Below the pieces are notes generated by a model. The model made no database searches and was not told the origin of the DNA. It worked only from the letters and a program-made list of their open reading frames with translations. 64,000 nucleotides of DNA from Candidatus Altimarinota bacterium (GTDB lineage: Bacteria; Patescibacteriota; Gracilibacteria; UBA4473). Positions 25,891 to 59,500 of this stretch are shown here, one piece after another. How positions within the stretch are numbered: position 1 is the stretch's first letter; each line of letters opens with the position of its first letter. The position numbers and the translations under genes are program-made. The DNA lies in assembly GCA_965231215.1 (NCBI GenBank), contig OZ246423.1:1088001-1152000 (forward strand). The letters run 5' to 3'.

Positions 25891-25921
25891 TTTTTTTTAG
25901 ATTGTATACCAAGTTAAAAAT

Positions 25922-26956: not shown

Positions 26957-27022
26957 TTTTTTCCATAGGCTCTTTTTTTGAGAAGCCGATAAATAAACAA
27001 ATCTAGGATATAAGTTTGCCAG

Positions 27023-27042
27023 ATTCTGGACAAGCCAGAATA
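27023..27042 (-). repeat. 20-bp palindromic element abutting the leuD stop
   Basis: ATTCTGGACAAGCCAGAATA, identical to 29601-29620. Confidence 0.85.
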
Positions 27043-27669: not shown

Positions 27670-27672
27670 ACT

Positions 27673-29070: not shown

Positions 29071-29244
29071 TAGCTCAAATAATGTAGGGAATTTTGCGGT
29101 TTTGGGAAGGTGATATAAAGAGAAATAAAGTTTATTTAATAGCAGATTTGGCGGTAAGAGGTAGAGAGTTACCTAACTTTGTTTGGACGCAGATTTAAAG
29201 CCTGGGGTACCTGAAACTAAATCACGTTGAGGGAAAGCCCCTGA

Positions 29245-29574
29245 CTACTCCCAAAATTTCCACTGATCAAATCGCACATTTTGAAATGGGGCGAGCGTTT
29301 CTTTTACCGTACTGAACTGATCACTAATAGAGGTTTTTACACCGTTAATTTGTTGATTCACAGCATCGAGTGAAGTCTGAATCGCTTGTACTATTTCCCA
29401 TACCTGCCAGAGCACGTAACCAATAATTGCCAAAAATATAAACGTCCATAAATTACTAAAAATCCAGCTAATCAAGCTTTTATAAAACGGTGGATGAACG
29501 GCTCTATCAATATCTTCTAGCCGGCTCATGATGTAGTCGAGTTTTTGTTCTACGGTTTTTGGTTTTCTAGCCAT
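29245..29574 (-). CDS. Hypothetical single-TM coiled-coil protein
   Basis: 109 aa with one central TM, between leuA and leuC. Confidence 0.7.
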   Translation of the reverse strand: MARKPKTVEQKLDYIMSRLEDIDRAVHPPFYKSLISWIFSNLWTFIFLAIIGYVLWQVWEIVQAIQTSLDAVNQQINGVKTSISDQFSTVKETLAPFQNVRFDQWKFWE

Positions 29575-29600
29575 CGGTATTTAGGATAGTAAATGATCTA

Positions 29601-29620
29601 ATTCTGGACAAGCCAGAATA
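29601..29620 (-). repeat. 20-bp palindromic element 1 bp after the leuA stop
   Basis: ATTCTGGACAAGCCAGAATA. Confidence 0.85.
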
Positions 29621-29621
29621 A

Positions 29622-39582: not shown

Positions 39583-39647
39583 CTGGAGTTTAGGGCATAT
39601 AACTTTGCCAAATATAAATCTTTTTTGTATAACTGCAGGCAAGACTT

Positions 39648-40538
39648 ATGAATACCAAGCCTGACGTATTTGAAAAATACATTTCACAATTTCCGGCAAA
39701 ATCTCAGCCGGAATTAAAACGCAGGCTCAAACACAAGAAAGCCCTTGAAGAAAAGGGGGATTTGGAGGTAACTAGTTTAGTATGGGAATCGTTTTTGGTG
39801 ACTTCTGATATTGCTAAAGACTCAAAGGTTAAAGTACTAAAAACTCAAGCTATTGAAATCAGAAACTCGCCAAAGAAGTTTATCAAAAGCGAGCATTTTG
39901 AAGCTAAAACACTATGTTTATTGGAGATTCTTTTTGATTTGAGTGAGGGGATAGTGATGTTTCCTTATGAAACTTATCAAGAATGGAGTGAAGTAGCTAA
40001 TGAATTTGGTTTTTGGAGATTAAGGTATGAACTTGAAGATGCAATTTTTAAGCATTTTGATCCAGAAAATTATGAACTCTTTAAAAGTGTTATTGGCAGA
40101 AAGATGAAGGCCGATGAAGCTCTACTTAGAGATATAAGATTTTTAATAGAAATATCAGCTACAAAGCAGTGTATAAAAAGCCTCAAAATCTATAACCGAC
40201 AAAAAAACATTTATGGAGTCTATAAAAAGATACAGATAAAGCAGAAAAATATTAATGATATCTATGATATTTATGGATTTAGACTTATTGTCGAAAGCCA
40301 GGCCGAGTGTTATGCGTTAATAGATATGATTCATAGATTATGGCCCCATTATCCTAATAGGTTTAAAGATTACATAAAACACCCTAAACCTAATGGATAT
40401 CAAAGTTTGCATACAGTGGTAAACTGCCTGCAAAAGAGTGTTATAGAATTTCAAATCCGTACGAACGAAATGGATGCTGTGGCTAGTTCAGGTATGGCAA
40501 ATCATGCCGCCTATAAAAAGAATACAGGAAAGAAGTAA
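39648..40538 (+). CDS. Short RelA/SpoT synthetase (Rel-derived, no intact HD hydrolase)
   Basis: RQKNIYG, YDIYGFR, RFKDYI, KPNGYQSLHT, EFQIRT, HAAYK; no HD motif and no TGS/ACT. Confidence 0.88.
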   Translation: MNTKPDVFEKYISQFPAKSQPELKRRLKHKKALEEKGDLEVTSLVWESFLVTSDIAKDSKVKVLKTQAIEIRNSPKKFIKSEHFEAKTLCLLEILFDLSEGIVMFPYETYQEWSEVANEFGFWRLRYELEDAIFKHFDPENYELFKSVIGRKMKADEALLRDIRFLIEISATKQCIKSLKIYNRQKNIYGVYKKIQIKQKNINDIYDIYGFRLIVESQAECYALIDMIHRLWPHYPNRFKDYIKHPKPNGYQSLHTVVNCLQKSVIEFQIRTNEMDAVASSGMANHAAYKKNTGKK

Positions 40539-41339
40539 TTATTTCTTCTTTTTGAGCTCAGCTCGAAGTATTGCATTTTTTTCATACATTTCAGCCATTC
40601 GCCAAGAGATATCAAAGACTTCTCGCATACTATCAGCAATCATGTTGCTTTTAACCACAACGGCTAATTTTTCATGAATAGAAAAATACGCGACTTTATC
40701 ATCATAGATGTTTAGCTCAATAGAGATATCTAGCATGTCTTTTGGGAGAAGGCGGCTGATCCGGAGTTCTTTATCGTCTAGTTTCTGTCTTTCACGAGAC
40801 ATCTTAGTGTCAGGAAAGAGGGCTTTAATCACAATATTGGCGGCTTTTCTCCTTTTGTAGTATTTAGGCACATAGTTTGGGAACAAAGATTCAGTATCAT
40901 CAATAGAGGCCATAGCGAGAATTTCAGTCTTTGTTGTTAGCGTGTCTTCATAGGCAGCAATCAAACCTTCACGTCCTTCATATAAAGCAATCTCAGGCTT
41001 AGTGAAAGCTGGGTTCATATAATCTTGGAATCGAGGAAGGTTTTTTTTGAACGTATCAATATTCTTTTCTAGTTTGAATTTGCTGTTTTCCAGTATTTTC
41101 AAAAGCACATCAGGTTGCTCAGGTGTAAAAAAGTCTTTTTCTCGTGCAAATTTACTCACAAAACCTCTATCAAGAAGGCTAGTCATGATCACACTTACAT
41201 CAAAAGTAGAAAGTTTTGTTTCCTCACTAAGAGTAGGAATATCCTGAGTTCCAAGCTTTAGTGAAGCCAAATATACTTCCGCTTCATTAGGGTTTAGGCC
41301 GATGTCTTCAAGGATTTTTCTGAGCATCTTGTTTGGCAT
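40539..41339 (-). CDS. TrmB-family HTH regulator (CPR-type)
   Basis: IGLNPNEAEVYLASL, PEIALYEGREG, ELNIYDDKVAYFS. Confidence 0.85.
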   Translation of the reverse strand: MPNKMLRKILEDIGLNPNEAEVYLASLKLGTQDIPTLSEETKLSTFDVSVIMTSLLDRGFVSKFAREKDFFTPEQPDVLLKILENSKFKLEKNIDTFKKNLPRFQDYMNPAFTKPEIALYEGREGLIAAYEDTLTTKTEILAMASIDDTESLFPNYVPKYYKRRKAANIVIKALFPDTKMSRERQKLDDKELRISRLLPKDMLDISIELNIYDDKVAYFSIHEKLAVVVKSNMIADSMREVFDISWRMAEMYEKNAILRAELKKKK

Positions 41340-41368
41340 TTAAGCCTTGTTTGGACTTTATTGCAAGT

Positions 41369-44300
41369 TTATTTTCTAACAGAAGGACTAATACTTTGAA
41401 GTTGTTTTATTGAAATAATTCTATTACCCTTATTTCTCTTCCATAAGTTATTCATTTGAACCTCTCCAATAACCCTAAACAGCTCATCAACATTGGCTTT
41501 TTCATGAAGATAGTGAAATGAAATTCTTATAGAATGATCTTTATCTCCTTTTTCTTTTGTTTCTCCAGGTATAACACTAGGAGAAAAGTGTTCTACCTGA
41601 TATCCTTTGCTTTTTAGTTCTGAAACCAGACTGTTACCACTAATCCCAGGAACAGAAATAGTCAATATTCCAATATAGTCAGAGCGTTTTTGGTCTGAGT
41701 TGGGGGTTGTAATATTCCAATTTAGGATAGAGGCAACTTTTGGCATTTCCTCAGGCGATATTGTTTCTAGATCGCCCTCTTTGGGCTTTATGGGAATTGA
41801 ATTTTGAATAATATCTGAAAAAGCTTTTTTATGGGTTTGTGCGACTTCTAACCCAATACTTTGAACTTTTTCTATAGCATAAGTAGTCAGTTCTTGCATG
41901 TGTTTTGCCCATTTACCACGCATAGACATATGTTCACTACTTTCGTCTTGGACATATCCTTTCCAGAAGTCAAAACGGCTTCTTAAATATCTCATAGCTA
42001 TAGCAGAGGCTACAAAGTTTTCCACAGGCCTGGTCCCAGCTGTCCCTTGAAGGCCTTCACTTTTGATAATAGGTTTTTTTCTTTCAGGTGAAGGTTGTTG
42101 GTAAGCAATACATCCACATCTACCTGCGCCCATAGCTTTTCCAAAACTAAACAGTATTACATCTGATTTGTAGCCAGACTCTGGATTGTCTCTTCCTACA
42201 CTTTGTGCAGCGTCTGTGATAGTTACAATGTTTTCTTCAGGTATGCCTTCTGCAGTAGCTTTTGCCTTAACTTTTTCAAAAAAACGGTTTAAATCATCTA
42301 AATGTTTTTTGGTTGATGTTTTTCTACTCATCGGAGCCGTTCCAAATCTAGTGTGGCAACTGAGGATTACAATATGTTTAGCTTCTGGATTAGCTTCATA
42401 ATTTGCTATTATTTGATTAGCAAAATTTGTAGCCATTTCTTCTACAGGTTTGGTATTTCCTTGTTTATCAGCTATATAAATGGCTTGTCCAGGTTCTGCT
42501 CCAGCCTTAGTAAAAGCGGCAATGACATCTTCATACTCTTGGTTGGAAAAGTATACATGTATAGGAACATTCGGATTTTCCGCACTATATCTTCCAGCAA
42601 AATCTCCAATAGCTGCACTAGCACTAACATACCATTCAGGATCATAATTACTGGCTTTAAAATGTTTTTGAAATTCCTTATTTATAAAAGTTAAAGCTCC
42701 ATCATAACCAAGATGCTTGATAGTAGCTCTTGCAGCCCTATGTAAAAAATCACGAGTCATCCCCAATTTAGCTGTAGTAAAATTCTTTGGCTCCCAATTA
42801 AGACTATTAGTTTCTATTGGGGGTATTACAGACTGATCGAGCATTGGCTTCTTTCTTTCTGGGAAAAAACAATATGGACCATTAAGAAGCATTTCTTCAG
42901 GTAAAACATCATAGGCCAATTGAGCTACCGCAATTCGGATTGTAGCCAATCCTTTCTTTTCAAGGGGGACATCTAGAGCAGGGTTTGTATCACTTAAAAC
43001 TTCAAATATAGATCGAGCCAAGATAGGGTTGGCACATTTTTCAGGCAGGCCTAATTGATATCTAATTAAGTCTGCTTTTTTTTTGTCATTTACATTTTCA
43101 GCTTTTCGTAAGTCTTCCGTTAACTTCTTTTTTCTTTCTGGGTAATCTTGCTGATATTTGGCCGCTTTGGTTCGTATGATTTTTAACATCATCAAAAATC
43201 TTTGTTGAGACTCATGAGAATGAACAATATTTTCTGGCTCTATAGTTCGTAAAAGGGCCTCATATCCAATGAAAGCCATTTCACTTCCTTCTGGAGTAAC
43301 AGGTTGAATAAGAGCTTTATTATCAGATAGTACACGCCTTAAGTCTCCTAAATTAGTCTTAGTGGGAGGACCTTTCTGTTGTGCTTGTTTATTTTTTGTT
43401 CGAGGTATAACGTCTAAAGGTTCAGCTACTGCATGTAAAGTATTAATTTTGGATTTGGTTTTCGGTGGTATATTATCTTCGGTTTCTCGAGTTATGTTCC
43501 TATTTAGATCTTGAATCTGAGAGACTAGTATTGGAAGGGGATGTTTATTGATCATTAAAAGTGCATTGGCCAAGAGTTCCCTAGGAATATCTCTAGTGAC
43601 CAACTTTGCAAGACCTGCTCCAGAACCAAACATGGATTCAGTGCTATCAGGCATAACCCATGGGTGGTTTTCTGGGTTTTCAGCCCAAATTTGTCTATGC
43701 ACTTCGTGTAAGTTAACTTTTGGGTCTACTACTAAATTTGGATGCCTTAATAAATCTCTCAAAAACCCCACCATTCTTTCTGTTTGTTTTGTAGGATCTT
43801 TAAATCCCCCAGAATTTAAAAGTCTATTGCACACGTCAGCATAAATACCTAAAAATTTAGCTAACTGAATTAAAAAATTAGGGTTGTATTCACACTGAAA
43901 TTGTAGGAGTTGAGTCATTCTACGAAGACTTTCTTCACCAGGTTTTCTTTTTGCTCCATTATGTGCATCATCTTTAAAGAGAAAAAATAGAAAATCTACA
44001 AGGTAGGTTAGATTCTCTTCCTCAAAGGTTGTTATTTTTCTGTGGATTGATTGTTTTATAGTATGTTTTAAGAGTGCCAATTGATTTTGTAAATTGAAAC
44101 TTTCATCTTGAATGAAAGCATTCTTTACTTTTCCTTGCCCAGAAGCAACTACTTCTTGTAAAAAATTTTCACCTTTAAATTCTGTGCTTTTCCTAGTCAT
44201 GACAAAGCTTGATGAGGTAAAAGCCAGAGCTGATTTTCTTGTGTGAGTTTCTACATCTTGAGGTTTTAAATCTATCTCAAATGGAGGCTGCGCTAGTTTT

Positions 44301-44533
44301 TGCCTTAGAGCTGGACCAAGCGGAAATTTTAATAATAAATCCCCAACCATTTTCTTAGTGGTATTTACTTGTGTAGAGAGGGGTCGTAAGTTATTTTCAA
44401 GCTCTAATAGGCTTAAAGCTATTACTTCTCCAATGGAGTCACCTATAACTTCAGATATAGCAGTACTAAAGTCGCTAACTGTTTTGGATAGATCTTCTAT
44501 AGCTTCTTGACTCAGTAGAGGTTCTCGCATCAA
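41369..44533 (-). CDS. 1054-aa protein with C-terminal PLP-dependent class V aminotransferase-like domain
   Basis: ITDAAQSVG, SDVILFSFGKAMG (putative PLP Lys), GTAGT, IRISFHYLH...VDEL. Confidence 0.7.
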   Translation of the reverse strand: MMREPLLSQEAIEDLSKTVSDFSTAISEVIGDSIGEVIALSLLELENNLRPLSTQVNTTKKMVGDLLLKFPLGPALRQKLAQPPFEIDLKPQDVETHTRKSALAFTSSSFVMTRKSTEFKGENFLQEVVASGQGKVKNAFIQDESFNLQNQLALLKHTIKQSIHRKITTFEEENLTYLVDFLFFLFKDDAHNGAKRKPGEESLRRMTQLLQFQCEYNPNFLIQLAKFLGIYADVCNRLLNSGGFKDPTKQTERMVGFLRDLLRHPNLVVDPKVNLHEVHRQIWAENPENHPWVMPDSTESMFGSGAGLAKLVTRDIPRELLANALLMINKHPLPILVSQIQDLNRNITRETEDNIPPKTKSKINTLHAVAEPLDVIPRTKNKQAQQKGPPTKTNLGDLRRVLSDNKALIQPVTPEGSEMAFIGYEALLRTIEPENIVHSHESQQRFLMMLKIIRTKAAKYQQDYPERKKKLTEDLRKAENVNDKKKADLIRYQLGLPEKCANPILARSIFEVLSDTNPALDVPLEKKGLATIRIAVAQLAYDVLPEEMLLNGPYCFFPERKKPMLDQSVIPPIETNSLNWEPKNFTTAKLGMTRDFLHRAARATIKHLGYDGALTFINKEFQKHFKASNYDPEWYVSASAAIGDFAGRYSAENPNVPIHVYFSNQEYEDVIAAFTKAGAEPGQAIYIADKQGNTKPVEEMATNFANQIIANYEANPEAKHIVILSCHTRFGTAPMSRKTSTKKHLDDLNRFFEKVKAKATAEGIPEENIVTITDAAQSVGRDNPESGYKSDVILFSFGKAMGAGRCGCIAYQQPSPERKKPIIKSEGLQGTAGTRPVENFVASAIAMRYLRSRFDFWKGYVQDESSEHMSMRGKWAKHMQELTTYAIEKVQSIGLEVAQTHKKAFSDIIQNSIPIKPKEGDLETISPEEMPKVASILNWNITTPNSDQKRSDYIGILTISVPGISGNSLVSELKSKGYQVEHFSPSVIPGETKEKGDKDHSIRISFHYLHEKANVDELFRVIGEVQMNNLWKRNKGNRIISIKQLQSISPSVRK

Positions 44534-44602
44534 AAATATTTATAAAACTTATAAAAAAAATGTCAACTATTATTTGGCATATAAAAAAGTACATTATTAC
44601 CG

Positions 44603-45052
44603 ATGAGAAGAGGACTCTACACTGTTTTAATGACTATTTTTTTGCTAGTAGTTTTTGACCAGTTGTCAAAATACCTTTCGCGCCTTTATTTAGTCGATGA
44701 ATCATGGCAAATATTCCCGTATTTTAAGCTTGAATTGGCGTATAACACGGGGATCGCGTTTTCACTCCCAGTACCACAAATATTGGTTCTGTTACTTACA
44801 GTAGTGATTGTTACGGTTCTCATATGGCAGATGTATAAAATGGCATTAAGTAAATACCTTTTATGGGCCTATATGTTGATTGTGGCTGGGGCAATAGGGA
44901 ACTTCATAGACAGAGTGCTTTTTGGCAAAGTAACCGACTTTATAGCGGTGTGGGATTTCCCAATCTTTAACCTAGCCGATACCTGGGTATCCCTAGGGGT
45001 AGTATGCTTTTTGTATGATGAATTTTTTGGTAAAAAAAAGCCGAACCTTTGA
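44603..45052 (+). CDS. lspA: Lipoprotein signal peptidase II
   Basis: DQLSK, NTGIAFS, GAIGNFIDR, VTDF, FNLAD. Confidence 0.96.
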   Translation: MRRGLYTVLMTIFLLVVFDQLSKYLSRLYLVDESWQIFPYFKLELAYNTGIAFSLPVPQILVLLLTVVIVTVLIWQMYKMALSKYLLWAYMLIVAGAIGNFIDRVLFGKVTDFIAVWDFPIFNLADTWVSLGVVCFLYDEFFGKKKPNL

Positions 45053-45087
45053 GTCCGACTTTCATAGGTTCAGATTAAAGACCTAAA

Positions 45088-45429
45088 TTATTTTTCAGCT
45101 TTTTCTTCCTTTTTGTCTTTGGCGCTAGCTTTTGGAGCGGTTTTTTTAGGAGCGACCGCTTTTTTAGCTGGCTTAGCCGCGAGCATTTTAGCCAGATTAG
45201 ATTTTTTTCGGGCGGCGTTTCGTTTATGTAGTAAGTTTTTCTTAGCGGCCATATCAATAGATTTTTGTACTTGTGGAAAGAGTTTTTCAGCTTCGGCTGT
45301 TTTTCCGTCTTCAATAAGCTTTGTATATTCTTTGATAAGTTCTTTGTATCGGTTTTTTGCAACCTGATTACGTTTAGTTCGTCGAGCCTCCACTCGCATT
45401 CGTTTCTGTGCAGATTTGATAATTGGCAT
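45088..45429 (-). CDS. rpsT: 30S ribosomal protein S20 with K/A-rich C-terminal extension
   Basis: MPIIKSAQKRMR, KKNLLHKRNAARKKS. Confidence 0.95.
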   Translation of the reverse strand: MPIIKSAQKRMRVEARRTKRNQVAKNRYKELIKEYTKLIEDGKTAEAEKLFPQVQKSIDMAAKKNLLHKRNAARKKSNLAKMLAAKPAKKAVAPKKTAPKASAKDKKEEKAEK

Positions 45430-45517
45430 GTTTTTAGCGTTTGAGCTTAATTTAGATCGAGCCGAGAATAGGAAAAAGTAGGGCTCCGTCAAGTTTTGAT
45501 CTATAATTTTTTCATAA

Positions 45518-45778
45518 ATGTCAAAATTCAGAACAATTAATGTACATTGTAGCTGCGGGTGTTTATTGGCTCGCTACAACAAAGGAGGGAAGGGGAGACT
45601 GCGTAAAATGTATTTTGAACGAATTGATAAAGATTTATTAGGGATTTTTTTAAAAGAACCACCCCTGCCACTCAATACGGATGTGTTTTGTCCTGGTTGT
45701 GGTAAGCGTGTTGGAACAGTACAGATTATGTCTGGAAAATATGTGATAAAAATAAATCAGGGAGTAGTTCGGGAATAA
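45518..45778 (+). CDS. Small Cys-rich (zinc-ribbon-like) protein
   Basis: CSCG...CPGCG; KGGKGRLRK. Confidence 0.7.
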   Translation: MSKFRTINVHCSCGCLLARYNKGGKGRLRKMYFERIDKDLLGIFLKEPPLPLNTDVFCPGCGKRVGTVQIMSGKYVIKINQGVVRE

Positions 45779-45807
45779 AAAAAACCGCTGAAATTTCAGC
45801 GGTTTTT
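45779..45807. terminator. Bidirectional terminator
   Basis: AAAAACCGCTGAA-A-TTTCAGCGGTTTTT between convergent genes. Confidence 0.85.
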
Positions 45808-45827
45808 AAAATACACAGAGTAAAAAC

Positions 45828-46418
45828 CTATTTACTGGTCATAAATTTGTGAACCCACATAGCACAGACAGCCCCAATGATTGGGCCAGCAATATAAGCA
45901 ACAGAAAGAGATCCAAGACCAAAGGCTACAGCAGGGTTAAGAATTCCATTAGAAACTCCAGCCGCGGCTAAAATCCCAACCAGTAATGAACTTCCGACAA
46001 TAAGACCACTGGTGTTGTCGTTTCCATTTTTTACGGCAGTGGCGACCCCAAACCCAAGCATAAACGCGCCTAGGATTTCAGCTCCCATAACCATATAACT
46101 GTTTTCTGCTACAACCATGACTTCTTTTCCAAACATGGCGAGAGCGGCCATCATAGCGAGTAAAGCTCCCAGTACCTGAGAAACGATATACATAACCGCA
46201 TCAAGTGGAGAGATTTTTTGGAGTGTGGCGAGGGCGACGGTAATAGCCGGGTTAATGTGAGCGCCACTCACACCACCAACCATATAAACAAAAAGCCCAA
46301 CAGTAAGGGCCGCAGCTACAGGGGTGGCAACAGGAAGATCACCTAAAAGCGTGGCTGATACAACGAAGGTGAGAGCGAAGGTGGCAATAAGTTCCGCCAG
46401 ATATTTTTTTATTGGCAT
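45828..46418 (-). CDS. Aquaporin (MIP family)
   Basis: SGAHINPA and ILNPAV (two NPA motifs); YIAGPIIG. Confidence 0.92.
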   Translation of the reverse strand: MPIKKYLAELIATFALTFVVSATLLGDLPVATPVAAALTVGLFVYMVGGVSGAHINPAITVALATLQKISPLDAVMYIVSQVLGALLAMMAALAMFGKEVMVVAENSYMVMGAEILGAFMLGFGVATAVKNGNDNTSGLIVGSSLLVGILAAAGVSNGILNPAVAFGLGSLSVAYIAGPIIGAVCAMWVHKFMTSK

Positions 46419-46676
46419 GACAATAAGGGTTAAGTGTTGGGGTAATTCTAAGGTAGATTTTAAAAAACACCAAATTATCATGGCTCTATGGAAGGAGTGT
46501 GTAATTAAATTTAGCTATAACTTTATATTTTTTTGATTGTTCTTAGAAGAGTCAGAACTCCCCAGAAATAAAGGGAACGCCTTTAGCGATTATGAGTAGA
46601 AAGTCGCATAGATTCTAGATCAACGTCGCTAACTCTATACCGAGAGGAAGTTCCTCAAAGTTCGGTTTCACAACTT

Positions 46677-47279
46677 TCACAGGAGGGCTTGTAAATGGAA
46701 AGCCATCATCATTAATCCTACCGCAAATAGCCAGCCGCCTAAGGTTCTGATTATGACCCAATGCCACTCCTGTTTGATAAAATCTTTAAACAGTACCGAA
46801 TAACTAAGAAAAGCAAAAATTCCAACTATCGCTCCCAGATAAAAGACCATATTTAGAGCTATATCTTGGCTCTCAGAAACGGTATCTACACCAATTAAAA
46901 ATCCACACAAAGCGAGTGGAAGACTGAGAATTTGAAAAGAAATCGGTTTATGAAGTGCCACAAGCCCTCCCCAAAGCACTAGACACAAACTGAAAGCAAC
47001 CTCAAGCGCCAAAGACGGGAGCAACCACTGCCCTAAAAATCCTGTAAGTAAGGCCCCCAGAAAAGTGCCTAAAAAGTGTTCTGGTTTTTTTTGAGAAAAT
47101 AGAGTGAGCCACAACGCTATTAACAATAACAAATGTGGAACTGTCAGGAAAGGGTGAGCCCCCCCATTAAGCAGTGGTTGAGTATCTCCAAAAAAGTTAT
47201 GGGCTTGCACTCTTGCAGGCACAACTGCACATATCACGCAAAAAAAGAACAGCACTCGTTGAAGATTGGCTAAAGCCAT
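46677..47279 (-). CDS. HupE/UreJ-family protein (divergent paralog)
   Basis: AH...GGAHPFLTVPHLLLL, IRTLGGW. Confidence 0.75.
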   Translation of the reverse strand: MALANLQRVLFFFCVICAVVPARVQAHNFFGDTQPLLNGGAHPFLTVPHLLLLIALWLTLFSQKKPEHFLGTFLGALLTGFLGQWLLPSLALEVAFSLCLVLWGGLVALHKPISFQILSLPLALCGFLIGVDTVSESQDIALNMVFYLGAIVGIFAFLSYSVLFKDFIKQEWHWVIIRTLGGWLFAVGLMMMAFHLQALL

Positions 47280-47851
47280 CCCATGAAAAAAGCTAGACCA
47301 CAAAGAGCAATCACGCCTCCCATAGCTCTAACCAAGTAAATACCTTTCGGCAGTTTCTCGGCAAACCCTAGACCAATACCCGCTAAATGCAGCAAGCCAG
47401 TTCCTAAGACGAAGCCTACAGCATAGGCTAACGGATTAGCCGCTTCGGGTAGCTCAGTACCATGAGCATGTCCGTGGAAGAGCGCAAAGATTCCCACCAA
47501 CACCATAGCTGCCCAGAGTGGGGCTTTCCAAGCCAGTAAAATGACGAGCCCCAGCACAAGACCTGACAAAGCAATACCGGGCTCTACAAAAGGAATTGGC
47601 ACTCCTAGGATACCAAGAACTGCCCCGAGAGCCATTACCATCGGAAAGGTGATGGGTAATACCCAGATAGCAGGGCGTAACAAAATGGCTCCCCAAAGCC
47701 CAACCGCAACCATCGCCACTAAGTGATCCCAACCCATAATGGGGTGTTTAAAACCACTTACAAATCCGCCCATAACCCCCTCTCCACTATGAGCAAAAAC
47801 AAGACTTGGTAGTCCCAAGGCTAACAAAAGTAGAAGTAAATTTTGTTTCAT
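47270..47851 (-). CDS. HupE/UreJ-family Ni/Co transporter
   Basis: AH...GFKHPIMGWDHLVAMVAVG, FHGHAHGTE, LLHLAG. Confidence 0.92.
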   Translation of the reverse strand: MKQNLLLLLLALGLPSLVFAHSGEGVMGGFVSGFKHPIMGWDHLVAMVAVGLWGAILLRPAIWVLPITFPMVMALGAVLGILGVPIPFVEPGIALSGLVLGLVILLAWKAPLWAAMVLVGIFALFHGHAHGTELPEAANPLAYAVGFVLGTGLLHLAGIGLGFAEKLPKGIYLVRAMGGVIALCGLAFFMGWL

Positions 47852-48035
47852 TTTGAAGTAAATAAAAAATTACCATAAGTCTATTCAAGTTTTTGTTTTT
47901 GTAAAAATTTAGTAACTGGACGGGAGGTATTAAGTTTTCTAAATACTTTATGGTTAGTGACGCACTAGTAATTTTCGGCTTCTTTAAAAACCCCTGCTAT
48001 ACGAGGTTTTAGATGGTTTTTTTGAGTTTTAAATA

Positions 48036-48470
48036 TGGTGGAGATGGCGGGAGTCGAACCCGCGTCCAAAGTGGAAAATATGTACCTTCTACGCTTATAG
48101 TGTGTTTTAGTACGATTGAAGCTATGAACACACAAACTACTTCAAAAGGTTCAGTAAGATTTTCGAATCAAATAGCACTGAGAACTATCTGACCTACACC
48201 GCTAAATAAGATGCATTACTTCACGGTAAAGTAATGCATCACCTAGGAGCAAAAGGCTCAACTAGGGTTTACCTATGAGCTCAAATTAAGCTACACGAGC
48301 GTAAGCTGGCATAGTCATAGCATCTGCGAAAGATCGAAGTGCTTTGTGAGCTCGAGCAAATGGTTTAGCATTTGTCTTTGTACCATCGTGGATAACTGCT
48401 ACGTCGGTACCTCAAGCAGAAACGCCAATAGATATTTTGCGAATCACCTTGTCGAATCCGGGACATCCCC
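48036..48470 (-). ncRNA. ssrA: tmRNA, 435 nt
   Basis: 5' GGGGATGTCCCGGATTCGAC; 3' GGTTCGACTCCCGCCATCTCCACCA; tag frame at 48369-48286. Confidence 0.95.
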
Positions 48471-48751
48471 TTGTAAGCGCGGGTGGAAACCAGTTTCCCC
48501 CGTGAGCCCCCTTCTAAAATATGTGTTTGTTTCAGTTAAGGAAACCACGAGACCTTAACTTCACTCACTGGGATTGAATATCAAAGAACAAAAGGAGGAT
48601 TTTTATTTTAGCGGAAAATTGAACGTTTGTCGAGCGGGTTTTGTTACAGAAGTTAGACTTTTATTTTTAGTTAAAAAAATATATTTTTCATTTGACAAGT
48701 TGACTAAAAGTTAGTAAACACTACAAAAGAGTTATACACCATAAAATAACC

Positions 48752-50134
48752 ATGAAAGTAGATTCAGGACATGATACAGTAGAAAGTCCTAGTGGATTGG
48801 GAGATAATCCTAAATTTACTAAACTAGATAGACTTGTATCTGATGATGACATACGGCAATTTGTTTTTGAAGGTATACAAGAAGTAGCTGAGGGTTGGGG
48901 GGTTTTAGATGCTCCATTTGATAATGTTATGGAACAAGTGAGAGAAAATAGAGAAGAAATTAAAAAGGCAGTTATTACTCTATTGGGAAACGCCTCACAG
49001 AATAGATTAAGAGAGGATAAACCTAAACATGATTCGGGGGTTTTTGATATGTTGAGCTTGTTGATTAGGGAAAGGTATTCTAAAAACGATATATCTAAGG
49101 CAGTTCTGGGGTTTGCGCACATTACCTCTACAGAGGCTAAAAAAGTCTTAGAAAAGCCTATTGATGGTCTCAATAAATGGCTTGGAGGTCTGGCAAATAT
49201 TGGTGACACCGAAAAAATGTGGCTTATAGAGAATTATGGAACTTCTGGTATTAGAATGTTTTTACCTAAAGGAGAGCAACTTTTTGGTATTGAACCTATT
49301 ACTTATCAAGACCTTTACGAAAGAGGTACGTATCGTTTTACAAGGGAGGCAGAAGCTACCCCGTTTTCAAAGAAATTTGTAGAAACTGCAACAGAATTCT
49401 CTGAATCAGAAGAACCATTCAAAGGAAAGCTTGTTTTGACTCTTGGTGGAGGACTTGGAGGAGATGAAGCGTACTTCTTAGAACAAGGGGCACGTGTTCA
49501 CAGTATTGATAAAAGTAAATCAGCTCGTAATGCTCAAAAAGCCAAGTTTGGAGAAACCAAAAAGGGATTCAGAGCTCTTTTGAAAAGTAACAAACCAGGT
49601 ATCCATATAGAAAATAAGAATACAGATATACTGACTGCATTAGCTGATCTAGCAGAGAGAATAGAAGCTGGAGATATTGAACCTTATGACTATATATATG
49701 CTCATTCAGTATTTCACCTTTTCTCTTATGAGGATTTTAAAACCTTAATAGAGCTATGTAAAAGAGTTCTAAAACCTGATGGACAACTTGGGTTTACTAT
49801 GAGAACCCCTAGCCCAAATGGGAAAGGAACACACTATGAAACGGGAGTGCCATTAAGAGTACGATCTGAAAGTTTAGTGCAGGCTACAGGTGATGTTATT
49901 GGAGCTTTTAATTACGACACAGATACGACTTCTTATTCAATAGATGCTGTCTTACATAATTTAGATGGAATTGATCGAAGATTTACTGACGGTGCTGGTA
50001 TTCAACAACTTTTAAGAGCTAATGGTTTTGATGTTTTGGTAAATGACCAATTACCAGTAAGCTCTTATAGCGTTAAGGGAACAGAACAAAGACAGCTTAG
50101 ATTTATATCTCAAAAGCTAGATGTAAGGCATTAA
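48752..50134 (+). CDS. Class I SAM-dependent methyltransferase with long N-terminal extension
   Basis: VLTLGGGLGGD, VHSID, YDYIYAHSVFH, RVLKPDG. Confidence 0.8.
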   Translation: MKVDSGHDTVESPSGLGDNPKFTKLDRLVSDDDIRQFVFEGIQEVAEGWGVLDAPFDNVMEQVRENREEIKKAVITLLGNASQNRLREDKPKHDSGVFDMLSLLIRERYSKNDISKAVLGFAHITSTEAKKVLEKPIDGLNKWLGGLANIGDTEKMWLIENYGTSGIRMFLPKGEQLFGIEPITYQDLYERGTYRFTREAEATPFSKKFVETATEFSESEEPFKGKLVLTLGGGLGGDEAYFLEQGARVHSIDKSKSARNAQKAKFGETKKGFRALLKSNKPGIHIENKNTDILTALADLAERIEAGDIEPYDYIYAHSVFHLFSYEDFKTLIELCKRVLKPDGQLGFTMRTPSPNGKGTHYETGVPLRVRSESLVQATGDVIGAFNYDTDTTSYSIDAVLHNLDGIDRRFTDGAGIQQLLRANGFDVLVNDQLPVSSYSVKGTEQRQLRFISQKLDVRH

Positions 50135-50142
50135 GAGCCATT

Positions 50143-50904
50143 TTAGCTTAGGTTGTCCCAGTGGTTTTTGAAAATAGTTCTGAGCATTTTTGCGAATGTT
50201 TCACCTTCTACACATATCCCAATTGGATGGTCTTCTTGGAAGGTAATGAAAGCTATTTTATTACCGTAGATTCGCACTTCGGCATCAATTTTTAGGTCTT
50301 TGGTTAGTTTTACTTGTCGATTACGTTCTTTGTCATGAGCATCTTCTTTTTCATATTCATTTTCAGGCTTTATAGCATAGGTTCTTATACCTTTTTCAAT
50401 ACGCTTTGTAATAAATTCCTTAGTATAATCGTCTCCAAAGGTTGAATAAATTTTAGCTAAATCTGTCCAAGAATAAAGATCTTCTCCAGTCTTGAGCATA
50501 TCTTCGTAAATCTCCTTGATTCCTTCTTCCCCTTCAAAGAAAAACACCTCGGGTTGCCATTGTTCTTCCTCAGTCACATCAAAAAAGTTGCTCATATCTT
50601 TCTCCGCTTTTTCGTAGAGAGTATCATGCTTATGTTTTTCTTCTTCTATCCATTCAAAGAACTTCTCTTTTTTACACGCTTCGTAGGTGTCTTCCTCCCC
50701 TCCACTAAGGATTACAAGGTCTTTTCGAGAAAGGTTGGCCAAGATGGCTTGCACAAGGTTAAAAGGGACAAGCGCTTCACGACTGATACGCTTTACTGAG
50801 GCCTTTTTAACTCTAAATAAATACAATAGGACTTTCACCTCTTGTCGGGTAAATCCTAACATACGAAGAGTTTGTTCTAGTTGAAGACTTTTATCTGGTG
50901 TCAT
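50143..50904 (-). CDS. TrmB-family HTH regulator (CPR-type)
   Basis: LGFTRQEVKVLLYL, PEVFFFEGEEGIKEIY, EVRIYGNKIAFI. Confidence 0.85.
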   Translation of the reverse strand: MTPDKSLQLEQTLRMLGFTRQEVKVLLYLFRVKKASVKRISREALVPFNLVQAILANLSRKDLVILSGGEEDTYEACKKEKFFEWIEEEKHKHDTLYEKAEKDMSNFFDVTEEEQWQPEVFFFEGEEGIKEIYEDMLKTGEDLYSWTDLAKIYSTFGDDYTKEFITKRIEKGIRTYAIKPENEYEKEDAHDKERNRQVKLTKDLKIDAEVRIYGNKIAFITFQEDHPIGICVEGETFAKMLRTIFKNHWDNLS

Positions 50905-50905
50905 C

Positions 50906-51508
50906 TTATATTTTGTGAGCAGCTACCGCTTCAAATTCATCCATGATATCTAAGTACATGGAGTGATATCTGAACGATATTTTATGAAAGTACTCAGAGA
51001 GCAGGGGAAGGTAGTCTTCATGTAACTCTCGGAGCCATTTTTTTTGTTTTTCAGGTTTGAGGTATTCAATGCTTTGTAAGTTGTGCAGTAAGTCTGCAAG
51101 TTTTATAAAAAAGACGCCGATGTCTTGGTCAAAGGCGCTTTTTAATTGGTTCACAAATTGGTTGTGGCGATCATGGCTAGAGGTGTTTTGGGTATCTTTA
51201 CTGAGCGCATCTACCATAAAGAAAACGTACTTACCAAATTCCTGGATAATGGTTTGTGCTAAGGCTTCAGGATTATCTCCATCCTCTAAAACGTCATGGA
51301 GCAGGGCCGCACAGATCATATCTTCATCCCCTCCAAATTGAGCAATCAGGCAGGCTACTTCTACGGGGTGTTTAATATAGGGTTCGCCTGAGAGTCTTTT
51401 TTGATTTTTATGAACTTCAGCCGCTATTTCATAGGCTCTTTGTACTCGAGCTTGGTTAAAGCTTGAAGACTTAGATTTTAGGGCTTTTTGAAGGACTGAA
51501 AATTCCAT
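50906..51508 (-). CDS. Stand-alone RelA/SpoT HD hydrolase (small alarmone hydrolase-like)
   Basis: HKNQKRLSGEPYIKHP, AALLHDVLED, IKLADLLHN; ends before any synthetase domain. Confidence 0.88.
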   Translation of the reverse strand: MEFSVLQKALKSKSSSFNQARVQRAYEIAAEVHKNQKRLSGEPYIKHPVEVACLIAQFGGDEDMICAALLHDVLEDGDNPEALAQTIIQEFGKYVFFMVDALSKDTQNTSSHDRHNQFVNQLKSAFDQDIGVFFIKLADLLHNLQSIEYLKPEKQKKWLRELHEDYLPLLSEYFHKISFRYHSMYLDIMDEFEAVAAHKI

Positions 51509-51554
51509 GTTTGAATGTAAAACTTTCTACTATTTATTAAAAAATTTGTCAAAA

Positions 51555-53609
51555 TTATGAACTATTTTCTTTCAGTTTTGTGTAAACACCTTTTTCCTGG
51601 ATTTCAACGACTCCCTCAAGACTTCGAATTTCTTGTATAGCCTTTTTATAAGCTTTTTCATCAGGAATATTGACGGTGAATTTAGCCAATAGAACATTGT
51701 CTTTGAGTTTTTTGAAATCCACCTTCCAGATAAAAATATGCTTTGGAGTGAGTACTTCTGAATAATCACGCATAAGGCCGAGTCGGTCTTTGGCTAAAAT
51801 TGAGAAATGTTTTTGCATAATAAATTCTGCTTCTAGAGTTCTTTCTGGGTCTAAATTTTTAAAAACTTTACAGTTTTTTTCGTGAATTACAAAATCCTTT
51901 CCACGAGTATTGTAGGCGCAGACTTCTTTGCCTGGTTGCGGATTACAACATTTGGCAAATCTATGAGGAAGTCCAAACTCCCCCCCTATCACCATCTGAT
52001 ATTTTTTGAGATCTTCAGGAGTTTTTACTTCTGGAGGCATAAATTTAGGTCTCCGATGCGGACGTGCATATTTTTTAGCTTCGGGTTTTTCGGTTAGGCT
52101 ATTTTCGGTTTGTTGTTTATGGACTTGATTGAGGTAGTTTTGGATTTTATGTCTGGCACTACTAGACTTTACAAACTTGAGCCATTGAGGATTTGGGGCT
52201 CGACCTGTTTTAGACATTATTTCTACGACATCACCGGCTTTAAGTTCTTCACTAAGTGGCTTGATAACCCCATTAACTTTAGCGCCTACACATCCATGAC
52301 CTATTTGGGTATGGATTGCATAAGCAAAATCAATAGGCGTGGCCCCGGTTGGGAGGTTTTTAACATCTCCCTTAGGCGTGAGTACATGAATCCTGGTTTT
52401 TGAGAGTGATTCTGTGACGTGCTGGAAAAAATGATTAGAGGATTCAATCTGAGCTAGCTCTTCCATGTCCTGAGGCACCCAACCAGTGGTTTCTCTATAT
52501 TTTTCATCAAAGTGAGAATCACCACGGGCTTTATAGGCCCAATGGGCGGCTGGCCCTAGTTCTGCATCAAGATGCATTTGCATTGTCCGAATCTGTATTT
52601 CTGTGGGCACTTTACTCTGAGCCAGCCCTAGTACGGTTGTATGGAGGCTTTGATACCCATTCGGCTTTGGGACAGCGATATAGTCTTTGAATCGTCCAGG
52701 AATAGGTTTCCAATGAGCATGGATAAGCCCTAAAGCTCGATAACAATCAGTATCATCACTTACAATTATTCTGAGCGCTAGTAAATCATGAATCTCAGAA
52801 GCGTGTTGAAGGTTTTTCTTTCTTAGTTTTTGTCGTACCGAATAGAGGTTTTTATCTCTTCCCTCGACTTTTTCAAACTCAATTTTGGATTTAGTAAGGA
52901 GCTTTTGAATTTCTTTTTTGGCTTCTTGAATATATTTAATTCGCTCTTTTTTGGATTGTTTAATCTGCGTAGTTAGACGGTCATGTTCTTCCTTGTAAAG
53001 AGCTTTAAAACAAAGATCTTCAATCTGAACTTTAAATTCATTGATCCCAAGTCTATCAGCCACCGGCACATATATCTGTAAAGATTCTCGAGCAATACGA
53101 GCTTGTTTTTCTTGTTTTACATGTCTGAGAGTTTTGAGGTTGTGGATTCGGTCTGCTAGTTTTATAAAAACTACGCGAATATCTTTGGCCATTGCCATAA
53201 AAAGTTTTCTCAAACTTTCTAGCTCTCGTTCTTTACCTTTAAGACGAATCTTTGAAATCTTTTCAACCCCTTCACACAAAAACCGAATATTTGATCCGAA
53301 CTCATTTTCTATCTCATCAGCTGTAGTGGCTGTGTCTTCAATCACATCGTGGAGCAAACACGCACAAATAGTTTCGATATCTGGCTGAATTTGAAGCAGT
53401 ATCTTTGTAGCCGCTATAGGATGAGAAAAATACGGCTCGCCAGAAAATCGTTTTTGATGTTCATGCGCTTTTTTCGCCATACAAAAAGCTTTTTTAATGA
53501 GGGCTTCATCCTTTTTTTTGAAGGATGGATGGTAGTGATTAATCTCATAGATGATTTCTTTAAAATCATCCTCAAAATTACACTCGCAATTAGCCGTATC
53601 TAAGCTCAT
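51555..53609 (-). CDS. rel: Bifunctional (p)ppGpp synthetase/hydrolase Rel
   Basis: LLHDVIED; RFKDY, NGYQSLHT, EIQIRT; TGS DFAYAIHT; AKCCNP; ACT DRLGLM. Confidence 0.95.
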   Translation of the reverse strand: MSLDTANCECNFEDDFKEIIYEINHYHPSFKKKDEALIKKAFCMAKKAHEHQKRFSGEPYFSHPIAATKILLQIQPDIETICACLLHDVIEDTATTADEIENEFGSNIRFLCEGVEKISKIRLKGKERELESLRKLFMAMAKDIRVVFIKLADRIHNLKTLRHVKQEKQARIARESLQIYVPVADRLGINEFKVQIEDLCFKALYKEEHDRLTTQIKQSKKERIKYIQEAKKEIQKLLTKSKIEFEKVEGRDKNLYSVRQKLRKKNLQHASEIHDLLALRIIVSDDTDCYRALGLIHAHWKPIPGRFKDYIAVPKPNGYQSLHTTVLGLAQSKVPTEIQIRTMQMHLDAELGPAAHWAYKARGDSHFDEKYRETTGWVPQDMEELAQIESSNHFFQHVTESLSKTRIHVLTPKGDVKNLPTGATPIDFAYAIHTQIGHGCVGAKVNGVIKPLSEELKAGDVVEIMSKTGRAPNPQWLKFVKSSSARHKIQNYLNQVHKQQTENSLTEKPEAKKYARPHRRPKFMPPEVKTPEDLKKYQMVIGGEFGLPHRFAKCCNPQPGKEVCAYNTRGKDFVIHEKNCKVFKNLDPERTLEAEFIMQKHFSILAKDRLGLMRDYSEVLTPKHIFIWKVDFKKLKDNVLLAKFTVNIPDEKAYKKAIQEIRSLEGVVEIQEKGVYTKLKENSS

Positions 53610-58788: not shown

Positions 58789-59313
58789 TTATTGCAAAAA
58801 CCCTTCCTTCAGTAGTTCTTTAGCAGTCAATTTATCAACCCCTCGTGATTGGAAGTATAGCACTTTTTCTTTATCCACTGGGGCAATAGAGGCTCCATGA
58901 CCGGCTGACTTTACTTTATCGGTTTCCACTCGAAGCACAGGGAGAGATTTACCCTTAGCCTGGTCAAAGAGGATGATGTTTTCTTCAATATGGGCTTCAG
59001 CATTTTCAGATTCACTTGTCAGAGTGCCAGACCCATCAAATTCTAAAAAGCTCTCACCTTCGGCCGTTCCTTTGAGCTGGATAGAGCCGATTTGTTCTTT
59101 TCCTTTGAAAATCTGTTTAATCTGCCAGGTTTTACGATCGGTTCCTTTAGATTGAGCTCGACCTTGGATATGGCATTCAGCATTCTCGCCTTCTAATTTT
59201 ACAACGAGCTGGAAATCTCTAGACCCTTCATCAAAATCTTCTAAAAAAATTTCTAAGCATTCTTGTGCCTTGAGGGTTATATTTTTTTCACCAGTGGGGT
59301 TGGTCAGTTTCAT
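58789..59313 (-). CDS. sufD: Short SufD-like (SufBD C-terminal) protein
   Basis: PVLRV..VKSAGHGASI, YFQSRG; downstream of sufCB; only 174 aa. Confidence 0.75.
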   Translation of the reverse strand: MKLTNPTGEKNITLKAQECLEIFLEDFDEGSRDFQLVVKLEGENAECHIQGRAQSKGTDRKTWQIKQIFKGKEQIGSIQLKGTAEGESFLEFDGSGTLTSESENAEAHIEENIILFDQAKGKSLPVLRVETDKVKSAGHGASIAPVDKEKVLYFQSRGVDKLTAKELLKEGFLQ

Positions 59314-59500
59314 CAGTCACAAATGTAGTTAAAAGTCAGTAACAAGCAATTTAACTTTATTTATTAGATTATTATTAAGGTATTAAAAATGCTTATCCTA
59401 CATTGAATAGGCAAATGCAATGAGCAGGAGGAAGTTAGGGATTAGGCGGTAAGGAGAAGAAGACTTCGTGCGGAGTTTTGGTGCTTGAAGAATTGAATTT

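Follow-up and report, generated by a model that had tools for sequence, protein, structure and literature searches.

The window analysed here is a stretch of 64,000 nucleotides (contig OZ246423.1, positions 1,088,001 to 1,152,000) from a Candidatus Altimarinota bacterium of the Candidate Phyla Radiation (CPR). It carries a gene for a small alarmone synthetase (SAS) that runs head-on into the gene of a TrmB-like regulator (TrmB1), itself preceded by the gene of a 1054-aa protein designated BIG. Together, these genes form a conserved three-gene CPR module whose core, the convergent and overlapping SAS-TrmB1 pair, is kept across deep CPR lineages. The pairing points to a control circuit that has not been described so far. 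A second group of genes in the window, composed of a long RelA/SpoT homologue (RSH) gene (rel), a small alarmone hydrolase (SAH) gene and a further TrmB-like gene (TrmB2), is a lineage-restricted cluster in which the SAH-TrmB2 pairing is not widely conserved. The account that we favour as a whole, i.e. a conserved BIG-TrmB1/SAS module under the control of TrmB1 and a separate, lineage-restricted rel-SAH-TrmB2 cluster, is given slightly better than even chances. An initial annotation of the window had described these genes as one alarmone toolkit linked twice to TrmB-type regulators. The coordinates, gaps and domains that it gave for all named genes were reproduced by the list of open reading frames (ORFs) and Pfam, the motifs that it quoted were found in the corresponding proteins (ANEFG...ELED in SAS and KPEKQ...YLPL in SAH), and Pfam confirmed the presence of three RSH genes (rel, SAH and SAS) in the window.

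The SAS gene (39648-40538, plus strand) encodes 296 aa in which Pfam recognised only RelA_SpoT (PF04607, residues 184-292). Residues 108-293 corresponded to positions 136-320 of TIGR00691, the long-RSH model, that is to the linker between the hydrolase (HD) and synthetase (SYNTH) domains followed by SYNTH itself. The best PDB match was Rel_Seq (1vj7, E 2.6e-39, SAS 107-293 against Rel_Seq 165-349), RelP/RelQ-type chains appearing at about 1e-7 only, and the score of 28.5 bits against the NCBIfam YjbM model (NF053588, cutoff 320) placed SAS outside the RelP/RelQ type. Identity to the Rel protein of the window reached 37% over the common part. Residues 1-107 form a family-specific N-terminal region. 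No TGS or ACT domain was matched in SAS by Pfam, and a search for a degenerate HD domain in its N-terminus, by hhalign comparison of the SAS and SAH families, returned a probability of 1%. A resemblance between LLEIL and LLHDV, considered as a possible trace of HD in SAS, was not significant and was dropped. SAS fits the small alarmone synthetase architecture, with SYNTH present and neither hydrolase nor TGS/ACT domains detected; judged from its sequence, it is the N-terminal half of a long Rel devoid of the hydrolase domain and of the C-terminal sensor domains. The proposal that both small enzymes are pieces of long Rel instead of RelP/RelQ types was thus borne out by TIGR00691 coverage and PDB matches, which also set SAH apart from Mesh1-like enzymes (see below). 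That they are "split" products of the fission of a single gene was not shown, the complementary TIGR00691 coordinates merely following a domain boundary.

Conservation within the SAS family is consistent with a functional synthetase. Residues R184, K186, K194, D207, R212, D241, K247, N249, Y251, H255, E267, Q269 and R271 were invariant in the 32 family sequences aligned. They include the equivalents of Rel_Seq D264 and E323 and of the nucleotide-binding Arg, Lys, Tyr and His residues, which we take to constitute the active-site set. Since this active site appears complete and Rel-like, SAS most likely makes (p)ppGpp from GDP or GTP and ATP. A homologue search returned 772 matches at E<=0.001. 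The best 120 included 12 full-length proteins with identities of 42-49%, remoter relatives measuring 250-325 aa and, next, CPR Rel proteins of about 485 aa displaying HD, SYNTH and TGS. In a phylogenetic tree, 35 SAS-family members formed a single clade relative to 46 long Rels (45 of the 71 collected, all of at least 470 aa, plus the window Rel), with a support of 100 in the Shimodaira-Hasegawa-like approximate likelihood ratio test (SH-aLRT).

Related loci were collected by scanning a species-representative genome collection, of which the window's genome is not part, with a degenerate DNA pattern for A-x3-G-x-W-x2-R-Y-x-[LM]-E-D-x2-F, a motif common to all SAS-family members in the alignment and not present in long Rels. 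The scan retrieved 20 loci, all from CPR metagenome-assembled genomes. A SAS gene was found in 19 of them, the last one (L020) being a chance motif match between topA and rpsB. According to the labels carried by the database records, the loci belong to Peribacteria/Peribacterales, Gracilibacteria, Kaiserbacteria, Nomurabacteria, Paceibacterota, Saccharibacteria and the "Patescibacteria group". They were annotated by tblastn with the window proteins and by Pfam searches on 104 of 150 nearby ORFs, namely those nearest the motif match.

A TrmB1 orthologue was the convergent neighbour of SAS in all 18 assessable loci as well as in the window (in L003 the contig ends past SAS, and in L011 the end of the contig cuts TrmB1 to 146 aa), and PF01978 was present in all 16 full-length TrmB1 neighbours scanned. 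In the window the two stop codons stand back to back (TAATTA). Measured from stop to stop across the 18 loci and the window, the two genes overlap by up to 73 bp in 12 pairs, abut in three and are separated by 3-6 bp in four. The third gene, BIG, lies upstream of TrmB1 on the same strand, 29 bp away in the window, and a homologue was detected by the family hidden Markov model (HMM) in the same place in 14 of 16 assessable loci. It was absent from L012 and L016, the contigs of L008 and L011 being too short to tell; in L014 BIG and TrmB1 are separated by a small methyltransferase gene.

Outside these three genes, neighbourhoods vary. Upstream of SAS were found uvrB, gmk, tgt, rseP or genes for an AI-2E transporter, a Na/Ca exchanger or SLH proteins, amounting to at least 13 different contexts among the 19 loci. 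The three genes also diverge at very different rates: identities to the window copies were 52-74% for TrmB1, the slowest-evolving of the three, 35-49% for SAS and 21-26% for BIG. Whether adjacency of RSH and TrmB-like genes could be expected by chance, given the many TrmB paralogues, was assessed by searching all ORFs of at least 80 aa in the 356,144 bp formed by the 20 loci and the window with a superfamily HMM built from 99 aligned sequences. This HMM recovered the 19 convergent TrmB1, TrmB2 and one weak MarR-like match, and no other TrmB-like gene in about 292 kb of flanks of the related loci. The association of SAS with TrmB1 (18 of 18 loci and the window) therefore lies far beyond chance. 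The window itself holds two genuine TrmB-like genes, each adjoining an RSH gene; Pfam searches on its other ORFs of at least 110 aa revealed no third one, apart from a marginal TrmB score of a MarR/DtxR-like protein.

The trees of TrmB1 and SAS, built on 17 loci and the window (L003 and L011 being excluded), shared strongly supported clades. The group composed of the window, L004, L008, L009, L010, L014 and L019 was found in both (SH-aLRT 97 and 100), as was the group L001, L015, L016 and L017 (98 and 97). This indicates that the two genes have travelled together, and SAS and TrmB1 have thus co-evolved.

Several other features were noted around the module. A pair made of an HD protein gene (PF01966, about 220 aa) and a gene for a familyless protein of 190-204 aa stands divergent from SAS in L004 (8251-9530), L009 (1-1214), L010 (10532-11772), L014 (2771-4017) and also L008 (3227-4048). 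It was considered as a core part of the module and rejected, as it recurs only in this Kaiserbacteria-type subclade; its HD protein, of a type that differs from the HD_4 of RSH enzymes, could be a local hydrolase partner. In L005, a guanylate kinase gene (9009-9581, plus strand) precedes SAS on the same strand with an 11-bp gap; guanylate kinase makes GDP, a likely substrate of SAS. Two Peribacteraceae loci, L015 (5583-7310, minus strand) and L017 (4146-5879, plus strand), carry a second, shorter class-V aminotransferase-like gene (about 575 aa) just upstream of BIG. Finally, a tRNA-like sequence followed by a T-run hairpin lies just upstream of BIG, within the 200 nt that precede its called start, in L004 (about 14640-14840), L010 (about 5080-5280) and L014 (about 10255-10455), and BIG start codons were probably called too far upstream in these three loci.

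TrmB1 (40539-41339, minus strand) is a protein of 266 aa in which Pfam recognised a TrmB winged helix at 10-75 and no other domain (PF01978 scores were 34.4 bits for TrmB1 and 34.7 bits for TrmB2, with a cutoff of 25.6). Its AlphaFold2 model, obtained with a predicted local distance difference test score (pLDDT) of 96.8, displayed a winged helix, a long dimerisation helix of about 30 residues and an alpha/beta C-terminal domain (helices at 2-57 and 76-107, beta/alpha domain at 116-230), the protein ending after a domain resembling phospholipase D (PLD) and a C-terminal helix. Foldseek retrieved TrmBL2 as best match (5bqt, 5box and 5bpd, with E-values between 2e-15 and 7e-14 across some 270 columns), followed by TrmB, and the C-terminal domain taken alone matched Nuc, Zucchini and PLD3/4 of the PLD superfamily. 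The model thus has the TrmBL2-like organization of winged helix, long dimerisation helix and single C-terminal alpha/beta domain. The additional sugar-binding subdomain found in TrmB and TrmBL1 is absent from it, the TrmBL1 model of NCBIfam covering only its positions 7-144 out of 341 and scoring TrmB1 at 26.8 bits (cutoff 650). In the alignment of 18 TrmB1 sequences, the C-terminal domain was far better conserved than the DNA-binding domain and contained invariant Y156, Y160, R164, K165, R193, R196 and K215. These features are compatible with binding of a phosphorylated ligand, and fit an oligomerisation or nucleic-acid surface equally well.

TrmB-like proteins are very numerous. A search started from P0004 returned 6100 representatives at E<=0.001, 2162 at E<=1e-10 and 39 at E<=1e-30, out of 1.84 billion. 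When 69 TrmB-like sequences were placed in one tree, the 18 TrmB1 linked to SAS grouped with four library representatives into a single clade (SH-aLRT 99), and an approximately unbiased test did not reject the 18 as a clade by themselves (p 0.61). By sequence comparison, TrmB1 is a rare and specialised clade in a very large CPR TrmB-like family. Pfam revealed no fusion to RSH or pyridoxal phosphate (PLP) enzyme domains in seven longer TrmB-like proteins (P0283, P0284, P0296, P0306, P0310, P0322 and P0354). A complex of TrmB1 (18-row alignment) and SAS (32-row alignment), predicted without controls, scored 0.15 against a mark of 0.32; it gives no verdict and was not used as evidence.

BIG (41369-44533, minus strand, 1054 aa) combines a helical N-terminal half with a C-terminal half related to class-V (fold-type I) PLP enzymes. 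The window copy matched no Pfam or NCBIfam model. Relationships appeared at the family level, where 10 of the 14 homologues scanned displayed weak, sub-threshold or marginal Pfam matches to Aminotran_5, the family profile retrieved cysteine desulfurases from the PDB (best E 1e-10) and the atlas look-alikes were Aminotran_5 clusters. In an alignment of 15 sequences, D774, Q777, R781, S796 and K799 were invariant, D774 and K799 being the PLP Asp and Lys of class-V, fold-type I enzymes. The model of BIG (pLDDT 75.9) resembled NifS, IscS and SufS over its PLP half only, with TM-scores of 0.6-0.73 relative to the target. Family profile, invariant D774/K799 and model agree with the PLP label that the initial annotation had given to this protein. 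In its C-terminal half, BIG has the same fold as NifS/IscS/SufS and retains the Asp and Lys that bind PLP; it differs from them by an additional all-helical N-terminal half of about 560 aa (1-560), for which no match was found in Pfam, the atlas or the PDB, and by the lack of a universal catalytic Cys. The sole recurrent Cys of the family, within FGC, was seen in most copies but is absent from the window copy and several others, so it does not behave as a conserved catalytic residue, and its absence from the window copy is the reason why BIG is not called a cysteine desulfurase here.

The second locus lies some 10 kb away. Its rel gene (51555-53609, minus strand) encodes 684 aa matching Pfam HD_4, RelA_SpoT, TGS and ACT_4, with HD and SYNTH motifs intact in the translation, and scored 618.4 bits against TIGR00691 (cutoff 499.2), as a long RSH with HD, SYNTH, TGS and ACT does. 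SAH (50906-51508, minus strand, 200 aa) follows after 46 bp and matched HD_4/HD only, with HD_4 at 25-169. It corresponds to TIGR00691 positions 1-144 and ends just past the KPEKQ...YLPL helix; its best PDB matches were N-terminal halves of long RSHs (6s2t, E 8e-27), with Mesh1-type chains at about 1e-11, and its identity to the window Rel was 37% over the common part. In a family of 40 sequences, H47, H71, D72, E75 and N143 were invariant and D139 was present in at least 90%, as expected for a stand-alone HD of RSH type. From their residue conservation, SAH and SAS both look active. The SAH homologue search gave 475 matches. Of these, 41 are close to 200 aa in length and 40-59% identical, and some carry the names Gracilibacteria or Peregrinibacteria in their sources. 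A single base pair separates the SAH stop from the start of TrmB2 (TAA-G-ATG), a gene (50143-50904, minus strand) for 253 aa with a Pfam TrmB winged helix at 13-78 and no other domain. With so short a gap, and no terminator detected from rel through SAH to TrmB2, SAH and TrmB2 are almost certainly co-transcribed in the window.

TrmB2 is a distant paralogue of TrmB1 (24% identity, BLASTP E 1e-18) and belongs to a clade of four members (SH-aLRT 100) apart from the TrmB1 clade. Only three homologues were detected in a search of 5.8 billion proteins that needs shared 5-residue words and gives co-location, not gene order. One of them (P0244) is on a 5385-bp contig and an SAH homologue (P0129) is on a contig of the same length, so that both probably share one contig. 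The contig of the second (P0245, 1185 bp) is too short to judge, and that of the third (P0246, 4044 bp) corresponds to no listed SAH homologue's contig. Conversely, close SAH homologues occur on contigs of 100,496 and 446,014 bp, lengths to which the contig of no TrmB2 homologue corresponds. Neither SAH nor a long Rel was found within 10 kb of SAS in the 19 other loci, which indicates that the two loci are not one conserved unit and that their spacing of about 10 kb is particular to the window genome. The claim of a double linkage to TrmB-type regulators was therefore upheld at the first locus (18 of 18 loci and the window) but not at the second, where three TrmB2 homologues were detected and one is apparently co-located with an SAH homologue.

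The initial annotation had further pointed out a large orphan enzyme beside each regulator. This proved right for BIG, which belongs to the conserved neighbourhood in 14 of 16 loci, yet nothing ties the other one to the system. It is a class-I S-adenosylmethionine methyltransferase of 460 aa (48752-50134, plus strand; Pfam Methyltransf_12/11/25/23), here considered as a neighbour only, whose methyltransferase domain alone gave a partial match to PADLOC mad2 (E 2.4e-11). The gene converges on TrmB2 with an 8-bp gap, in the same tail-to-tail geometry as SAS and TrmB1.

In the account that we favour, BIG and TrmB1 would form an operon running head-on into the SAS gene. Since SAS lacks both domains for ribosome sensing and a hydrolase of its own, the amount of enzyme made would be the main determinant of its output, and TrmB1 would act as a dedicated controller of SAS expression, perhaps by binding to promoters. 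Control could also reside in the geometry itself. No terminator fits between the genes at the SAS/TrmB1 junction, so each transcript would read antisense into the opposite gene, and the SAS and BIG-TrmB1 transcripts, being antisense to each other, might impose reciprocal and mutually exclusive expression. In the window, a terminator-like hairpin for the SAS transcript is located at 40550-40568, inside the 3' end of TrmB1, and the next one on the minus strand at 39757-39742, deep within SAS. As to the signal received by the PLD-like domain of TrmB1, the two leading candidates would be the nucleotide product of SAS, hence a feedback, or a metabolite of the PLP enzyme BIG. Rel and the stand-alone SAH would supply (p)ppGpp degradation in this genome. 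A more specific version, in which TrmB1 would be a direct receptor binding (p)ppGpp or a related SAS product through the invariant Arg, Lys and Tyr residues of its PLD-like domain, while the overlapping layout would operate as a two-state switch with either SAS or BIG and TrmB1 on, is regarded as unlikely.

Upstream of SAS, promoter-like sequences (TTGCCC/TTGCCA, about 17 nt, then TATAAA/TATAAC) were observed about 15-60 nt before the start codon in L004, L009, L010 and L014, as well as at 39590-39640 in the window. An imperfect TTATT-N9-AATAA inverted repeat, spotted by eye over the -10 region in L010, L004 and L014, is a candidate operator. A TrmB1 operator shared by the regions upstream of SAS and BIG was also looked for in seven loci, by eye and without statistics, and proved too poorly conserved to be claimed.

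A number of points weigh against the account that we favour. The closest structural relative of TrmB1, TrmBL2, is described in the accessible part of PMC4877046 as an abundant, non-specific chromatin binder. As that protein binds DNA in this manner without a sugar-binding subdomain, the conserved C-terminal domain of TrmB1 could serve oligomerisation instead of sensing. Convergent genes are not co-transcribed, hence the usual operon argument does not apply to SAS and TrmB1. The terminator scan of the window was barely above background (seven found, against 4.0 +/- 1.8 in shuffled sequences), and we infer throughout the enzyme product, the regulation (including DNA or nucleotide binding by TrmB1), the antisense effect and the ligand. 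BIG is missing from two loci and is thus not obligatory. Furthermore, several of the 19 loci are closely related (L009/L010/L014, L015/L017 and L003/L006) and do not count as independent, the number of separate lineages being perhaps ten. The loci were picked through SAS, and TrmB1-clade genes without SAS may exist, the four library members of the clade coming without genomic context. Likewise, an exact-match motif misses variant SAS genes, whose neighbours might differ.

Four other explanations were weighed. In the circuit as first proposed, (p)ppGpp or a related nucleotide would be the ligand of the C-terminal domains of both TrmB1 and TrmB2, which would adjust transcription accordingly, and the three RSH enzymes would form one toolkit with two sensors. 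It draws on the adjacency of both TrmB-like genes to RSH genes in the window, the translational coupling of SAH and TrmB2 across 1 bp, the apparent co-location of P0244 with an SAH homologue on a 5385-bp contig, the invariant Arg, Lys and Tyr cluster of the TrmB1 C-terminal domain, and the fact that enzymes of PLD-like fold bind phosphate esters (the Foldseek list included Zucchini with tungstate and PLD3 with single-stranded DNA). Yet, TrmB2 is only 24% identical to TrmB1 and falls in a different clade, it has three detectable homologues while SAH homologues on the 100,496-bp and 446,014-bp contigs are unpaired with it, and the 19 other SAS loci have no SAH or Rel within 10 kb; we consider this circuit quite improbable. 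A reading in which TrmB1 would sense a substrate or product of BIG (an amino-acid or sulfur metabolite) and set SAS expression, as a nutrient-to-alarmone relay replacing ribosome-based starvation sensing, is rather unlikely as well. It is favoured by the position of BIG and TrmB1, which share a strand with a 29-bp spacing in the window and are neighbours in 14 of the 16 loci that could be assessed, by the retention of the PLP Lys and Asp by BIG and by the lack of TGS and ACT sensor domains in SAS; in general, a regulator encoded together with an enzyme often senses the substrate of that enzyme. However, the TrmB1-SAS pair persists without BIG in L012 and L016, the fast evolution of BIG (21-26% identity, compared with 52-74% for TrmB1) would be odd if TrmB1 were tuned to a ligand of BIG, and the FGC Cys of most copies is missing from the window copy.

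The initial annotation had also offered, as an alternative, a pair of toxic SAS (toxSAS) and SAH, i.e. a toxin-antitoxin or defence system in which TrmB1, as antitoxin, or SAH, as type-IV antitoxin, would restrain SAS. Like SAS, the toxSASs FaRel, FaRel2, PhRel, PhRel2 and CapRel have a conserved small neighbourhood with a partner of an unrelated family; such two-gene neighbourhoods served to flag toxSASs, and SAHs neutralise them, as reported in the accessible part of PMC7229694. A stand-alone synthetase without hydrolase is also potentially growth-inhibiting. A match of SAS to the PADLOC candidate family PDC-S33 (E 1.9e-17) was rejected as defence evidence and deemed generic, since the housekeeping Rel matched it too (E 2.5e-13). 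While the toxSASs described in that part of PMC7229694 lie in co-directional bi- or tricistronic operons, SAS and TrmB1 are convergent in 19 of 19 cases. The partner of SAS is a highly conserved DNA-binding protein which, unlike commonly known antitoxins, is much more conserved than SAS across CPR classes. The flanks are of housekeeping nature (uvrB, tgt, gmk, prfB-like, clpP and tsaD), with no phage or mobile genes in the Pfam tables, and SAH is unlinked to SAS in the other loci. Orientation, context and conservation pattern thus all speak against this explanation, the least probable of those weighed. Finally, the three genes might be neighbours by descent, or have moved together between CPR lineages, without functional coupling. 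CPR genomes are compact and abutting convergent genes are common in them. Moreover, the window looks Peribacteria-like, as homologues of its two tandem paralogues that combine SLH and CAP domains (24868-26956, minus strand) were restricted to loci labelled as Peribacteria or as unclassified Patescibacteria (L016, L012, L007 and L002). Its module, in contrast, clusters with copies from Kaiserbacteria, Nomurabacteria and Paceibacterota; this discrepancy hints at transfer of the module as a block between CPR lineages. Frozen synteny is nevertheless very unlikely as the full explanation: surroundings are reshuffled (at least 13 SAS upstream contexts in 19 loci) while the SAS-TrmB1 pair is without exception in 18 assessable loci, and the very different divergence rates of the three genes argue against recent en-bloc transfer as sole cause.

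Comparison with known systems brings out both relationships and differences. RelP and RelQ (YwaC/YjbM) are, like SAS, stand-alone SYNTH proteins without hydrolase or C-terminal sensor domains; sequence similarity between them is remote, however, and SAS retains the helices of the long-Rel HD-SYN linker. A precedent is provided by RickRel and RickSpo of Rickettsiales, which are long RSHs that secondarily lost domains and now have a single function (PMC7229694, accessible part). In the alignment file of that study, RickSpo ends just past the ...PEK... helix, like the window SAH, and RickRel retains linker and SYNTH, like SAS, but still has a degenerate HD region where SAS displays a 107-aa N-terminus without detectable HD. 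These proteins belong to another phylum than CPR, and TrmB or PLP neighbours are not described for them in the same part of the study. On the regulator side, TrmBL2 of Thermococcales is a global repressor and a tetrameric, abundant chromatin protein whose DNA binding is largely non-specific and which lacks the sugar-binding subdomain (PMC4877046); it is highly conserved and also present in some bacteria (PMC3031468; PMC4877046). Its domain order is that of TrmB1, at 16-18% sequence identity, and the accessible parts of PMC4877046 and PMC3031468 mention neither an effector of TrmBL2 nor an adjoining RSH gene. The sugar sensors TrmB and TrmBL1 also share the N-terminal winged helix with TrmB1, and part of the first subdomain of their effector domain aligns with it in structure (2f5t, 3qph).

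Other features were also noted in the window. Two adjacent genes for HupE/UreJ-family membrane proteins (46677-47851, minus strand) have ORFs overlapping by 34 bp, and the second matches the family model far less well than the first (E 8e-11 compared with 2.5e-59). Between them and the gene of the 460-aa methyltransferase lies a tmRNA gene (48036-48470, minus strand; Rfam RF00023, 98 bits), for which ARAGORN gave a tag ending in ...AYARVA. Within 58789-60913 (minus strand), the similarity of an ORF of 174 aa to the SufBD core is limited to the C-terminal portion of that core. Next to this ORF are sufC and a SufB/D gene of full length (470 aa); the ORF could encode a short protein of SufD type or represent a truncated copy. 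The genes purA and dnaA are found at 17643-20336, and ilvC, leuB, leuD, leuC and leuA at 20541-31145. The contig carrying the window measures 1,326,059 bp, and such a leucine/branched-chain biosynthesis set is richer than expected for a CPR genome of about 1.3 Mb.

Both the classes of enzyme and the fold of the regulator dealt with here were already known. What appears to be new is a Rel-derived SAS family of CPR, its fixed convergent TrmBL2-like partner and the associated PLP enzyme. A survey of the literature on SAS and SAH subfamilies, on TrmB and ppGpp in CPR and on TrmB combined with alarmones yielded no description of the SAS family or of its pairing with TrmB1, within a comparison that covered PMC7229694 apart from its classification tables; in titles and abstracts, matches for TrmB and alarmone mostly concerned the tRNA methyltransferase of the same name. 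The RSH census by Jimmy et al. 2020 (PMC7229694) named, in its accessible part, 30 SAS, 11 SAH and 13 long subfamilies, and its readable supplements, i.e. without the classification tables, contain none of the names Kaiserbacteria, Peregrinibacteria, Parcubacteria, Nomurabacteria, Saccharibacteria, GW2011 or RIFCSP. The SAS family may already carry an existing subfamily name.

CPR bacteria have small genomes, are mostly uncultured and often live as episymbionts. All genomes in which the motif scan detected the SAS family belong to them, TrmB1 being the invariable and unusually conserved genomic partner of SAS and BIG a frequent third member. To our knowledge, the ways in which these bacteria sense starvation and control growth remain largely unknown. 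Should TrmB1 neither read an alarmone nor control its synthesis, the module would still be a clean case of a conserved convergent gene pair in need of an explanation. If it does one or the other, it would represent a new class of alarmone effector and provide the first functional handle on the CPR TrmB-like family. And if TrmB1 were the receptor of the SAS product, the module would be the first dedicated cassette of an alarmone synthetase and a receptor transcription factor, offering a CPR-specific route from alarmone to transcription where classical targets are lacking.

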